Part shown: in pieces, positions 10,036-14,217 of the stretch
Position numbering within the stretch: the first letter of the stretch is position 1
How the letters are laid out: each line of letters opens with the position of its first letter
Source: a virus
Taxonomy: Duplodnaviria > Heunggongvirae > Uroviricota > Caudoviricetes
Virus record (IMG/VR): IMGVR_UViG_2660238499_000006
Span: 1-16,014 of that record
Direction: 5' to 3' (one strand)
Length of the DNA: 16,014 bases
Notes under the pieces: model-generated
Told to the model about the DNA's origin: nothing
What the model saw: only the letters and a program-made list of their open reading frames with translations
Databases searched by the model: none
Made by a program: the position numbers and the translations under genes

Positions 10036-10214
10036 GAACGTCATTAGTCACCCGTGAAGAGATGATCGAGGCAATTGAACAGCACACTGCCTGTATCAGT
10101 ACCAGGGATATACCGGGCGTTATTGCCAACTACTTCATTCATGATCACCAAACAACTTTACCGGAGAAAGGACAAACACGCGGTTCACCGCATTCTGCTA
10201 ACCGATATCCGTGA
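10032..10214 (+). CDS. 60-aa ORF translationally coupled to the icd-like gene; possibly the N-terminal remnant of a frame-disrupted Ant1-like start
   Basis: ATG overlaps the upstream stop (ctATGA). The ORF ends at 10214 while the ant frame (+1) is open across the same region. Confidence 0.3.
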   Translation: MRTSLVTREEMIEAIEQHTACISTRDIPGVIANYFIHDHQTTLPEKGQTRGSPHSANRYP

Positions 10215-10284
10215 ATACCTGCTCGAACAGGGTCATCTGAATTACGCAACCGTCGCAGCCGAAGCACGCAAGGAGGCACACAGA

Positions 10285-11148
10285 ATGAAAGCAACTAACG
10301 TTAAATCAGAAAAAATTTATGCACCTTCAGTTCAGGAATCGGAACTGGTGGTTGTTCAGAATCAGCCGGATGAAATTCCCGTTCTGGAATGGCAGGGAGT
10401 ACGTGTCGTGACAACCGAAACTCTTGCTAGAGGGTATGGGGTCGATGAAGCCAATATTCGCAACAATTTGTCTCGCAACCTTGACCGCTTTGAAGAAGGT
10501 AAGCATTACTTTCTTCTAACTGGTTTAAAATTAAGAGAATTTAAGAACAGAGTAACCGGAAGTTACTCTGTTGGTAAGAACGCCAGAAGCCTTACACTCT
10601 GGACAGAGCGCGGCGCTGCACGCATGTCTAAGATCGTGGACACAAATGAAGCGTGGGCATTCTTTGAAAAACTGGAAGACAGCTACTTCCGACAAAAAGA
10701 ACAGCAACCGATCGCAATCCCCCAGACGCTTCCAGAAGCTCTGCGCCTGGCTGCCGAACTGGCTGAACAAAAGCAGCTTCTGGAACAGAAAGCCCACCAG
10801 CTAAATCAGCAGCTGGTGGCCGCCGCTCCTAAAGTCGATTTTGCCGACCGGGTATCAGTAGCTAAAGGGATCCTGATTGGGAATTTTGCAAAGGTTGTTG
10901 GACTTAAGCAAAACGCGCTGTTTGCCTGGTTACGGGAGAACGGCATCCTGATAGCGTCCGGTGGACGTAAAAATGTGCCGTTCCAGCAGTACATCAATGC
11001 GGGGTATTTCACGGTGAAAGAAGTGATGCTGGATGATGAAGATGGCTACCAGATACGGTTGACGCCTCAATTAACGGGTAAAGGCCAGCAGTGGTTGACG
11101 CGTAAACTGCTCGATGCTGGCTTGTTAAAACCGGTGGCGGCTGAATAA
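10285..11148 (+). CDS. Phage antirepressor-like protein (N-terminal ORF6N/Bro-N-like, C-terminal KilAC/Ant-C-like), Ant2-sized (287 aa)
   Basis: Strong SD AGGAGG 8 nt before the ATG at 10285. ...PVLEWQGVRVVTTETLARGYGVDEANIRNNL... and C-terminal ...FADRVSVAKGILIGNFAKVVGLKQNALFAWLRENGILIASGG...YINAGYFTVKEV... are antirepressor-type domain patterns. The frame stays open upstream to 10066. Confidence 0.6.
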   Translation: MKATNVKSEKIYAPSVQESELVVVQNQPDEIPVLEWQGVRVVTTETLARGYGVDEANIRNNLSRNLDRFEEGKHYFLLTGLKLREFKNRVTGSYSVGKNARSLTLWTERGAARMSKIVDTNEAWAFFEKLEDSYFRQKEQQPIAIPQTLPEALRLAAELAEQKQLLEQKAHQLNQQLVAAAPKVDFADRVSVAKGILIGNFAKVVGLKQNALFAWLRENGILIASGGRKNVPFQQYINAGYFTVKEVMLDDEDGYQIRLTPQLTGKGQQWLTRKLLDAGLLKPVAAE

Positions 11149-11180: not shown

Positions 11181-12032
11181 TTATTGCGCGCTTTCGGGGT
11201 TGTCGTTTACTGGCTGCCCCTTCTTGGTTTTACGGCTGCGCGTAACTGATGCGGCTGACTTAACCTTTTTCTCTTCGCGAGTGATGGCAATTTGTTTTTT
11301 TACATTTTCAATATCTGCCAGGCGATATATTTTTGCTTGCGGCCAGCGGTCGCAGATGATCGGTTCTATGGAGTCATAAAGGCTAAATTTTGCTTTTTCG
11401 AATTCACCGTTGATGATAATTCCATCACGGAGAGTTTCATCGCAGATAAACACGCCACACAGTGGCACATGGTAACTAACTGATTTACCATCATTGTAGT
11501 TAGGGCTACTGGAAATGTAGTGGACGCGCAGCATTGTTTCGCTAAAGCCGTGTACGCGCATACGGAATTTTTCATCCTCCGGGTACTGCCTCATTAGCTC
11601 TTTTGTTGCTTCCAGGTTCTCTATGTATTTCGCACTGTGCTCATTGATCCCCGCGCTTTTTTGGATGCGAATGTCCTTATCAATCAGATGAATAATGCGG
11701 CCAGCGGTCATGTTGACGCTGTTCACAGCTTCTGTCTGATAAGTTGTAACCTTGCGCACACCGCGAAGGATGTTAGGCACTGGATATAAAATAGTCTTTG
11801 GGATATTGAGGTCTGGGTACTGTTCCAGTTCCCGCGCCATTAAAGTCCATTTATCAATTTCAGCCTGAATGCTGTCCGTTTCTTTGAACGGTAGAACGAC
11901 AACCGGGCGTACAGGACGACCGTCGCTGGCGGTATCAACGTGTTGGGCGCGTGCAACAGCTTTTTTTAGAAAGAGATCCCTGAAGCTGACGAACTCCTGG
12001 TACAGTTGTTCGCCGTAGACATAATTTATCAT
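11181..12032 (-). CDS. c1: C1 repressor of lysis (primary immunity repressor), 283 aa
   Basis: MINYVYGEQLYQEFVSFRDLFLKK...; length, position next to coi/loxP and the surrounding operators all match P1 C1. Confidence 0.92.
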   Translation of the reverse strand: MINYVYGEQLYQEFVSFRDLFLKKAVARAQHVDTASDGRPVRPVVVLPFKETDSIQAEIDKWTLMARELEQYPDLNIPKTILYPVPNILRGVRKVTTYQTEAVNSVNMTAGRIIHLIDKDIRIQKSAGINEHSAKYIENLEATKELMRQYPEDEKFRMRVHGFSETMLRVHYISSSPNYNDGKSVSYHVPLCGVFICDETLRDGIIINGEFEKAKFSLYDSIEPIICDRWPQAKIYRLADIENVKKQIAITREEKKVKSAASVTRSRKTKKGQPVNDNPESAQ

Positions 12033-12126
12033 TGATCCTCCTCCAGAATTGACATGGTCAATAACGCCCGGCTGAGAAAACCGGTCATTACTGACCTATA
12101 TTATAGAGGGATCAAACAAAAATAAT

Positions 12127-12143
12127 AGATTTATTAGTGCATT
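12127..12143 (-). promoter_or_regulatory. C1 operator (reverse orientation, about 14/17) between coi and c1
   Basis: agATTTATTAGtGCAtT compared with AAATTTATTAGAGCAAT. Confidence 0.5.
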
Positions 12144-12352
12144 TATTGTGAGTCTAACTGGTTAGTTGCCATGAGATATTCGATTGTGTCAGTGAGGTCA
12201 TCCAGGTCGTCTTGGGTGATGCGGTACTCCTGATTGGATATCTTTGAGTAGTGTTCAGCAATGGCGCGGGCAGCGTCGGTTTCGGCAGGGTCTACAGATA
12301 AAGCGTTAGAGCAATGTCTAACGTCGTCGATGGTTGGTTGAATGAAAGCCAT
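12143..12352 (-). CDS. coi: Coi, C1 inactivator, 69 aa
   Basis: 69-aa acidic ORF (MAFIQPTIDDVRH...) directly upstream of c1 on the same strand, with SD GAGG 7 nt before the ATG. Confidence 0.8.
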   Translation of the reverse strand: MAFIQPTIDDVRHCSNALSVDPAETDAARAIAEHYSKISNQEYRITQDDLDDLTDTIEYLMATNQLDSQ

Positions 12353-12590
12353 AATTATGCCTCACTGTATTGACAACACAGAGCCTGAAGCTCTGACCTA
12401 CTGTTTCACCCATGATCCATGCTGGGGTAATCTAACAACATTGCGCTGTGTGTAAGATGAGCAATGCATAGCTGTAATGCCGTTGTATAAGGTTTCCCTG
12501 TTTGCTCATTTCCTTCTGAGCCGCTCTACAACGCTGAAGACACATTAAATAGTGAATCCAAAGTCGTATTACGTAACGGCGGCAAAACTA

Positions 12591-12607
12591 TAATTTATTA
12601 GAGCAAT
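12591..12607 (-). promoter_or_regulatory. C1 operator (reverse orientation, 16/17), overlapped by a minus-strand TTGACA (12609-12614) and a plus-strand TATAAT (12589-12594)
   Basis: tAATTTATTAGAGCAAT. Candidate immC promoter/operator driving coi-c1. Confidence 0.7.
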
Positions 12608-12673
12608 TGTCAAACAACTATGAAAAACAATCCAGTTTTTAGCTGGTGGAGTGGGATTTTTCTCTCAAAATTT

Positions 12674-12690
12674 ATTGCTCTAATAATTCT
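12674..12690 (+). promoter_or_regulatory. C1 operator (ATTGCTCTAATAATTCT, 14/17)
   Basis: Direct match to the operator core, 44 bp left of loxP. Confidence 0.65.
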
Positions 12691-12733
12691 TGATTTTTGT
12701 GCGCAGCTGGACGTAAACTCCTCTTCGGACCTA

Positions 12734-12767
12734 ATAACTTCGTATAGCATACATTATACGAAGTTAT
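12734..12767. other. loxP site (ATAACTTCGTATA-GCATACAT-TATACGAAGTTAT)
   Basis: Exact 34-bp canonical loxP: two 13-bp inverted arms around the asymmetric 8-bp spacer. Confidence 0.98.
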
Positions 12768-12786
12768 ATTAAGGGTTATTGAATAT

Positions 12787-12859
12787 GATCAATTTACCTG
12801 TAAATCCATACAGTTCAATACCTTGGCAGGTCAAATAGTGATCACTTGATCATTTGATC
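12787..12859. promoter_or_regulatory. Cluster of four Dam GATC sites in the cra/cre upstream region (candidate methylation-sensitive promoter)
   Basis: GATC at 12787, 12840, 12848 and 12856; three lie within 20 bp (gtGATCacttGATCatttGATCaagg). Confidence 0.5.
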
Positions 12860-12956
12860 AAGGTTGCGCTACGTAAAATCTGTGAAAAATTGGCGGTGTC
12901 AGTCCTACAGATTTCGCGTAGCGCACTTAGCACCACCAATCAATCAGAGGTGAAAA

Positions 12957-13178
12957 ATGGGATATTCAGCTGCTAAAGTGTCCACTCATCTTGAGCTTGA
13001 GAAAAATCGTGGTTACTGGCGGGCAAAAGGGTTTGATCGTGATAGTTGTCAACTGTCATTATCGCGCGGTGAAGAAAAGATAGAACGCAGTCGCGGTCGT
13101 TGGCGTTTCTATGACGAGAACCATAAACAGGTAAAGGCAGAGCCGATCCTGTACACTTTACTTAAAACCATTATCTGA
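12957..13178 (+). CDS. cra: Cra (cre-associated small protein)
   Basis: 73-aa ORF with SD gaggtg, immediately upstream of cre as in P1. Confidence 0.65.
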   Translation: MGYSAAKVSTHLELEKNRGYWRAKGFDRDSCQLSLSRGEEKIERSRGRWRFYDENHKQVKAEPILYTLLKTII

Positions 13179-13185
13179 GTGTTAA

Positions 13186-14217
13186 ATGTCCAATTTACTG
13201 ACCGTACACCAAAATTTGCCTGCATTGCCGGTCGATGCAACGAGTGATGAGGTTCGCAAGAACCTGATGGACATGTTCAGGGATCGCCAGGCGTTTTCTG
13301 AGCATACCTGGAAAATGCTTCTGTCCGTTTGCCGGTCATGGGCGGCATGGTGCAAGTTGAATAACCGGAAATGGTTTCCCGCAGAACCTGAAGATGTTCG
13401 CGATTATCTTCTATATCTTCAGGCGCGCGGTCTGGCAGTGAAAACTATCCAGCAACATTTGGGCCAGCTAAATATGCTTCATCGTCGGTCCGGGCTGCAA
13501 CGACCAAGTGACAGCAATGCTGTTTCACTCGTCATGCGACGGATCCGAAAAGAAAACGTTGATGCCGGTGAGCGTGCAAAACAGGCGCTGGCGTTCGAAC
13601 GCACTGATTTCGACCAGGTTCGTTCACTCATGGAAAATAGCGATCGCTGCCAGGATATACGTAATCTGGCATTTCTGGGGATTGCTTATAACACCCTGTT
13701 ACGTATAGCCGAAATTTCTAGGATCAGAGTTAAAGATATCTCACGTACTGACGGTGGGAGAATGTTAATCCATATTGGCAGAACGAAAACGCTGGTTAGC
13801 ACCGCTGGTGTAGAGAAGGCACTTAGTCTGGGGGTAACTAAACTGGTTGAGCGATGGATTTCTGTCTCTGGTGTGGCTGATGATCCGAATAACTACTTGT
13901 TTTGCCGTGTCAGAAAAAATGGTGTTGCCGCGCCATCTGCCACCAGCCAGCTATCAACTCGCGCCCTGGAAGGGATTTTTGAAGCAACTCACCGATTGAT
14001 TTTCGGGGCTAAGGATGACTCTGGCCAGAGGTACCTGGCCTGGTCTGGACACAGTGCCCGTGTCGGAGCCGCGCGAGATATGGCCCGCGCCGGAGTTTCA
14101 ATACCGGAGATCATGCAAGCTGGTGGCTGGACCAACGTAAATATTGTCATGAACTATATCCGTAACCTGGATAGTGAAACAGGGGCAATGGTGCGCCTGC
14201 TGGAAGATGGCTATTAG
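13186..14217 (+). CDS. cre: Cre site-specific tyrosine recombinase, 343 aa
   Basis: MSNLLTVHQNLPALPVDATSDEVRKNLMDMFRDRQAFSEHTWKMLLSVCRSWAAWCKLNNRKWFPAEPEDVRDYLLYLQARGLAVKTIQQHLGQLNMLHRRSGL...; start lies 436 bp from the loxP centre, as in P1 numbering. Confidence 0.98.
   Translation: MSNLLTVHQNLPALPVDATSDEVRKNLMDMFRDRQAFSEHTWKMLLSVCRSWAAWCKLNNRKWFPAEPEDVRDYLLYLQARGLAVKTIQQHLGQLNMLHRRSGLQRPSDSNAVSLVMRRIRKENVDAGERAKQALAFERTDFDQVRSLMENSDRCQDIRNLAFLGIAYNTLLRIAEISRIRVKDISRTDGGRMLIHIGRTKTLVSTAGVEKALSLGVTKLVERWISVSGVADDPNNYLFCRVRKNGVAAPSATSQLSTRALEGIFEATHRLIFGAKDDSGQRYLAWSGHSARVGAARDMARAGVSIPEIMQAGGWTNVNIVMNYIRNLDSETGAMVRLLEDGY

Follow-up and report, generated by a model that had tools for sequence, protein, structure and literature searches.

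A 25-codon reading frame upstream of coi in a P1-like prophage maps to imcA and is most likely non-coding

The window, a 16,014-nt stretch of an IMG/VR virus record, contains the repressor gene c1, the coi gene with its promoter and leader, loxP, cra, and cre (Table 1). The positions of annotated P1 features were obtained from alignments to AF234172, AY751747, and AY751748, in which a locus position x of the P1 record corresponds to window position 12751 - x. Positions 12100–12900 shared 97–99% identity with P1, P7, phiW39, SJ46, JL22, and RCS47, and the 321 nt around the 25-codon ORF studied here were 100% identical to numerous E. coli plasmids. The gene layout, together with the 97–99% match to P1 relatives, indicates that the window represents the immC/lox/cre segment of a plasmid prophage of the P1 type. 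Directly downstream of c1 and convergent with it lies a 357-aa ORF (10075–11148, plus strand) with ORF6N and ANT/KilAC antirepressor domains (Pfam, 66.7 and 108.7 bits, respectively); in the P1 reference, pacB adjoins c1 at this place, and RCS47 has "ant" annotated there.

Table 1. Positions of genes, regulatory sites, and leader features in the window.
Feature	Position	Strand	Remark
c1	11181..12032	-	Primary repressor; baseline for protein-type selection
C1 operator Oc1ab	12143-12116	-	Mapped P1 annotation
coi	12143..12352	-	C1 repressor inactivator, 69 aa; SD GAGG 6-7 nt before ATG
C1 operator Oc1c	12299..12315	-	Within coi start; mapped P1 annotation
imcB	12318..12413	-	31 codons (MGETVGQSF...); mapped P1 annotation
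P1coi transcript 5' leader	12353..12583	-	~230 nt; holds imcA and imcB
25-codon ORF	12432..12509	-	imcA codons 13-37 plus stop; internal in-frame ATG
imcA	12432..12545	-	37 codons, MCLQRCRAAQKEMSKQGNLIQRHYSYALLILHTAQCC; maps to AF234172 imcA 94482-94595
Operator-like site ATTGCTCATCTTACACA	12449..12465	-	Inside imcA; ATTGCTC core 12465-12459, 9/17 consensus positions
Local hairpin GCUCA-GAAGGAAA-UGAGC	12506..12523	-	MFE and centroid structures
P1coi promoter (formerly P99d)	12584..12613	-	Includes Oc1d; P1 annotation via alignment
C1 operator Oc1d	12607-12591	-	Mapped P1 annotation
P1coi -35 hexamer	12613-12608	-	Mapped P1 annotation
loxP	~12750-12783		
cra	12957-13178	+	
cre	13186-14217	+	

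The promoter/operator sequence TTGACAATTGCTCTAATAAA was conserved in the JK004, Salmonella arizonae, and L112 types. By its sequence, P1coi would be a poor sigma-70 promoter, with a perfect TTGACA, yet a TATAGT only 15 nt downstream; the -10 hexamer of the P1 record reads AGTTTT in the window. A promoter consensus scan of positions 11900–13300 returned no sigma-70-type site by the criteria of the scan, P1coi included, and a terminator scan found none that was convincing in the leader.

A sequence-only reading of the window had proposed an imcB-like micro-ORF upstream of coi. The minus-strand ORF of 25 codons exists and translates as that reading had it, from ATG (12509) to TAG (12434–12432) with the product MSKQGNLIQRHYSYALLILHTAQCC, but the true open frame begins 12 codons further upstream at ATG 12545 and comprises 37 codons. 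Its position between the immC operator/promoter and coi was confirmed by the P1 mapping of the -35 hexamer, Oc1d, and coi; the first two coincide with the operator/promoter that had been placed at about 12591–12614, and the locus is indeed the imcA/imcB region of P1, on the strand of coi and downstream of the immC operator/promoter. The likeness to imcB did not survive the alignment, which gave the in-frame 3' two thirds of imcA (AAQ14084.1). Because P1 annotates the 37-codon ORF as imcA, the 25-codon frame constitutes its 3' portion; judged by alignment, it is an already-annotated P1 feature under a wrong name. P1 imcB (AAQ14083.1) resembles the 25-codon ORF in lying in the leader on the same strand, in the same reading frame, and with a similar size (31 codons), but it is a separate ORF at 12413–12318, and the imcB reading was rejected as its peptide has no similarity to the product of the 25-codon ORF. 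The two annotated frames are separated by the TAG and 15 nt, and the 3'-terminal 35 nt of imcB overlap the start of coi, whereas the 25-codon ORF ends 80 nt before coi.

The name imcA has stood in the P1 annotation since 2004, and imcA and imcB are likewise annotated in phiW39 and RCS47. P1 imcA shares its locus, strand, frame, and stop with the window sequence (113/114 nt identical), follows P1coi/Oc1d and precedes imcB and coi, and encodes a product that differs at one residue (A27 in the window, T27 in the P1 reference). It differs from the 25-codon ORF in its annotated start at ATG 12545, the shorter frame starting at codon 13; the full ORF is present in the window. P1 imcA is a purely predicted ORF, and the accompanying phrase "immunity C function; may regulate expression of c1" is a conjecture of the annotators. 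In P7 and in the IMG/VR locus L106, the TAG stop reads AGG, which fuses imcA and imcB into a 75-aa imcAB; the first 37 residues of the P7 product (AAV28857.1) equal ImcA of the window. The stop of the 25-codon ORF thus varies even among members of the clade. Other small frames of the region were also considered and set aside: the ATG of a 23-aa ORF at 12469–12398 is lost in P1 and E. albertii, and no support was found for the plus-strand ORFs at 12342–12455 and 12477–12548.

The length of the frame is within chance expectation. Among 5000 dinucleotide shuffles of the leader, 66% contained an ATG-initiated ORF with 25 or more codons, and 35% contained one with 37 or more. The sequence-only reading had also pointed to an SD-like AGAAGGAA located 1 nt upstream of ATG 12509. 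The sequence is SD-like (best anti-SD duplex, -5.7 kcal/mol), but it directly abuts the ATG, and a spacing of 0 nt leaves too little room for normal initiation. The annotated imcA ATG at 12545 has no usable SD (anti-SD duplex of only -3.1 kcal/mol), and imcA and imcB both have weak start signals (-3.1 kcal/mol, at spacings of 10 and 1 nt); proper SDs are present at coi (-6.5 kcal/mol at 6 nt) and c1 (-12.1 kcal/mol at 3 nt). ImcA matched no family in Pfam or PHROG, and ImcB matched only PHROG 35478, which is P1-derived and has no assigned function. The RefSeq records listed carried no annotation over the imcA stretch. One paper simply lists coi, imcB, and imcA as short ORFs (PMC2409434), and a CRISPRi screen found knock-down of imcB to be non-essential for plaque formation and left imcA out (PMC10695390). 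The literature searched contained no discussion of imcA function or of insertions in imcA, and a search for evidence of its translation yielded nothing.

Selection was analyzed by comparing the window with E. albertii plasmid p2RM9976 (L093), which is ~93% identical. Between the two sequences, imcA showed 0 synonymous and 6 non-synonymous differences and imcB 1 and 3, respectively, both being small numbers, and c1 showed 47 and 8, which is the signature of a constrained protein. Without a synonymous excess in imcA, no protein-type selection was seen in this pair, small as the numbers are; the imcA frame is still open in E. albertii despite the 6 substitutions. Among 100 P1-type loci, an identical 37-aa ORF was found in 79. 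The variants comprised a stop-loss fusion (n = 2), a 16-nt frameshifting deletion (L064), a premature stop (L097), interruptions by insertion sequences in 10–12 loci, and a single case of a synonymous change. These are mostly kinds of variant that a real gene would not tolerate.

Segregating sites were counted in 48 uninterrupted P1-type sequences. They amounted to 2/114 (1.8%) in imcA and 0/78 in the part of it that forms the 25-codon ORF, compared with 26/137 (19%) in the non-coding DNA upstream of the promoter, 13% in the first 38 nt of the leader, 12% in coi, 25% in the coi–c1 spacer, and 98/284 (35%) at c1 third codon positions (9/9/98 for c1 by codon position). The bodies of imcA and imcB taken together (6/175) differed from c1 third positions with p = 5e-17 (Fisher), and their stretch (12353–12545) was the least variable part of the lox–c1 interval, with variable DNA on both sides. 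Comparison with E. albertii likewise gave a divergence of ~5% in the ORF bodies versus 17–18% in short flanks. With c1 third positions as the baseline, nucleotide-level conservation of the imcA stretch exceeds the neutral expectation, and because the three codon positions are frozen alike, the constraint acts on nucleotides and not on the peptide. This unexpectedly low variability points to a candidate nucleotide-level role of the imcA stretch.

The same stretch is interrupted in many natural plasmids. IS5 (1195 bp, ends GGAAGGTGCGAA) was found at three or more positions within imcA and in both orientations: after CTAT 12471–12468, at 12456, and at the stop-containing TTAG 12435–12432, all of them inside the 25-codon ORF. 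Composite insertions were also present, IS5-dmsABC-IS1-IS5 in RCS47 and IS5 plus IS1 in L045. Loci with an interrupted imcA included L004, L005, L021, L023, L028, L035, L041, L045, L087, and L105. The 321-nt region was split in 140/702 PLSDB records, 81 with an identical IS5::imcA junction, and in 133/701 records from complete RefSeq E. coli genomes, which corresponds to an interrupted imcA in about 20% of natural P1-like plasmids. As the 81 identical junctions may share one ancestral insertion, these cases are counted as approximately four independent events and not as 140. An IS5 in imcA separates coi from its C1-controlled promoter. Phage phi456, which carries IS5 at the common imcA site, is released spontaneously at ~1e7 PFU/ml and forms plaques on MC1061 (PMC10967188). 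Since phi456 plaques despite the IS5, an intact imcA and a direct linkage of coi to P1coi are dispensable for a working phage. Interruption of imcA by IS5 was not mentioned in the literature searched.

Folding of the leader on both strands revealed no stable global structure (z = -0.54 and +0.17), and an Rfam scan of window positions 11900–13300 with E values up to 5 gave chance-level matches only. When 19 P1-type haplotypes, which differ by few substitutions, were analyzed with RNAalifold, the only hairpin with pair-preserving, one-sided changes was located at the 5' end of the leader, where it buries the annotated imcA AUG; covarying hairpins were seen only in non-P1 leaders. In the local hairpin listed in Table 1, the loop contains the SD-like purines, and the stem includes the U and G from the AUG of the 25-codon ORF; the sole E. 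albertii change in this hairpin (A to G) falls in the loop. Comparison of leader k-mers with the whole window, in direct and reverse complement orientation, yielded one 12-mer (0.44 expected), and the idea of a trans-acting RNA was dropped as complementarity within the window was no better than chance. The operator-like site inside imcA is one of only three minus-strand copies of ATTGCTC in the window (Oc1d, Oc1c, and 12465–12459), and it has no operator annotation in P1. The E. albertii version of this site, ATTGCTCT, is one base nearer to the consensus. Looping between the immC operators, mediated by C1, has been described in earlier work on P1; such looping could constrain the spacing but would not explain the sequence invariance.

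Searches of GTDB genomes and IMG/VR with C1 returned almost only near-identical P1-type copies, and divergent lineages were reached through protein database searches with Coi and C1. The C1 identity was ~77% for Cronobacter phage JK004 and a Klebsiella contig, 77–79% for the Salmonella pCVMN1543 type, and 71–74% for further Salmonella sequences and the metagenomic loci L108, L112, and L113. The order lox, C1-controlled promoter, coi, and c1 is retained in these lineages, and a Coi homologue was found by tblastn in every one of them. Searches by tblastn with ImcA, ImcB, and ImcAB matched P1-type sequences only, at least five divergent lineages being without a match. The small ORFs 5' of coi vary in frame, length, and position among lineages; one crosses the coi start in the Salmonella Newport type, JK004, and L112/L113, and none does so in the Salmonella arizonae type. 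The sequence-only reading had named non-conservation of the reading frame in related phages as the finding that would speak against the ORF, and this is what was observed: the frame occurs only within the near-identical P1 clade and is absent in Salmonella, JK004/Klebsiella, L108, L112, and L113.

The coi leaders of JK004, the Salmonella pCVMN1543 type, L108, L112, and L113 share synteny with that of P1. They have the blocks TTTGCCGCCGT, CAGAAGG, and GCAAAC.AGG in common with it, as well as GCUCUGUG (GCTCTGTG) before the coi SD, and homology to the P1 leader is recognizable in their 3' part. However, the distance from the -35 hexamer to the coi ATG is 552–584 nt in the divergent lineages versus 261 nt in P1, and the divergent leaders carry a tRNA-like element and strongly conserved non-coding blocks, both of which P1 lacks. 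The AAATGA that supplies the ATG of the 25-codon ORF is an insertion peculiar to P1-type sequences. In the other lineages, CAGAAGG forms the 3' side of a hairpin in which compensatory changes occur (e.g., CCUUUUUG/CAGAAGGG vs CCAUGAUG/CAUCAUGG) and is not followed by an AUG; a better interpretation of the "SD" of the 25-codon ORF is therefore that it belongs to a conserved element of the leader.

The long leaders (L090 1711–2258 from JK004; L092 984–1500 and L091 983–1500 from Salmonella plasmids; also L108, L112, and L113) contain no conserved ORF in these divergent phage-plasmids. Blocks such as CCAGCCGGAGGTGGC..TAACACCGGCAGCAATAGCAGT are conserved across all lineages, and the stem ACAACGGTTAGAGCATTG/CAGTGCTCTAATCGTTGTG, which resembles inverted C1 operators, is accompanied by several covarying hairpins. 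From its sequence, the long leader looks like an undescribed structured leader with no Rfam family. Its tRNA-like element (L092 1126–1248, L091 1124–1246, and L090 1873–1996) matched Rfam RF00005 with 41, 39, and 27.7 bits, respectively, against a gathering threshold of 29; the acceptor, D, and T arms are intact, and the variable region holds ~50 extra nt. ARAGORN reported no tRNA in the JK004 leader, although the Rfam tRNA model matches there. The c4 RNA of P1 is processed by RNase P from a tRNA-like precursor, and the tRNA-like element of the long leaders recalls this precursor.

Four kinds of result bear on what the frame is: its identity as imcA, the lack of protein-type selection, the loss of the ORF in divergent lineages, and its frequent natural disruption. 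The explanation that we favor, with a probability of roughly 70%, is that the 25-codon frame and imcA are non-coding, being chance-open frames in a functional coi leader that has a nucleotide-level role; imcA is, on sequence grounds, most likely not a protein-coding gene. According to this explanation, the C1-repressed P1coi transcript, in whose leader imcA and imcB are annotated as tiny ORFs, has Coi, the C1 inactivator, as its real product. The leader would link coi to a repressible promoter and space the C1 operators Oc1d, Oc1c, and Oc1ab; cis-acting RNA or DNA elements that determine the amount of Coi are probably also present in it. It is possible that the imcA peptide is constrained jointly with an overlapping RNA or DNA element.

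That imcA, as the 37-aa or the internal 25-aa version, encodes a micro-protein of the P1 clade acting in trans in immunity appears improbable. The intact and identical ORF in 79 of 100 loci, the frame left open by six substitutions in E. albertii, the strong conservation of the stretch, and the annotation in P1, phiW39, and RCS47, with "immunity C function" in the P1 GenBank note, would agree with such a protein, and the heavy remodelling of the divergent lineages weakens any comparison directed against a young clade-specific gene. On the other hand, the absence of synonymous changes beside six non-synonymous ones and the equally frozen codon positions are not what a protein would leave behind, and neither are the stop-loss, frameshift, and nonsense variants, the ~20% of copies interrupted by insertion sequences, or a plaque-forming phage with IS5 inside imcA. 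The frame further lacks a usable SD, a length beyond chance, a homologue outside the P1 clade, and a protein family. We would give an equally small chance to imcA and imcB being cis-acting upstream ORFs whose translation, and not whose peptide, tunes coi; for example, ribosomes that terminate on imcB 34 nt into coi could expose or block the ribosome-binding site of coi. Such ORFs would leave the peptide free to vary, which fits the 0:6 ratio, and imcB, which shares the frame of imcA, does overlap the coi start, one change in the stop codon joins both ORFs in P7 without evident harm, and a small ORF also runs across the coi start in the Salmonella Newport type, JK004, and L112/L113. However, among the other lineages the ORFs that cross the coi start vary in both frame and length, and they are missing altogether from the Salmonella arizonae type. 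The imcA and imcB start signals are weak, interruption of the leader by IS5 is tolerated, CRISPRi against imcB left plaque formation unaffected (PMC10695390), and the frozen third codon positions are left unexplained.

A discrete regulatory RNA or DNA element in the imcA stretch, to which the ORFs would be incidental, overlaps the favored explanation and does not compete with it; we regard it as a possibility of limited weight. Candidates would be a small RNA processed from the leader in analogy to P1 c4, a site bound by a protein, or a weak C1 operator engaged in repressor looping. The nucleotide-level constraint, which forms an island amid variable DNA, the ATTGCTC operator core inside imcA, and the homologous leaders with their deeply conserved non-coding blocks, tRNA-like element, and covarying hairpins are consistent with an element of this kind. 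Less easily reconciled with it are the lack of a significant fold or an Rfam match in the window, complementarity to the rest of the window that does not exceed chance, an operator-like site agreeing at only 9/17 positions, a P1 leader without the tRNA-like part, and the tolerance of insertions.

Taken as chance-open frames in a functional leader, imcA and imcB also raise a more speculative idea, which we consider rather unlikely as a whole: instead of two genes, imcA–imcB may be a reduced form of the conserved, structured, non-coding coi leader of ~520 nt present in other P1-like phage-plasmids, the near-invariance may reflect RNA- or DNA-level regulation of Coi/C1, and IS5 may rewire the switch. 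If this were true, the leader RNA would possibly be processed like the tRNA-like precursor of P1 c4 RNA, and insertion of IS5 would be a recurrent natural rewiring of the Coi/C1 lysis–lysogeny switch. For the P1 switch and for phage-plasmids, the interest lies in a coi leader that is strongly constrained at the nucleotide level yet is a recurrent target of IS5, and in the divergent relatives, whose conserved non-coding leader is far longer and includes a tRNA-like element. The likelihood that imcA is a gene is lowered, not raised, by the present analysis. This also concerns annotation hygiene, as P1-like records have taken over imcA and imcB as "immunity function" proteins with nothing to support that label. 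The P1-type coi leader itself was present in 698 of 5426 complete RefSeq E. coli genomes (13%) and was plasmid-borne at 819 of 833 places.
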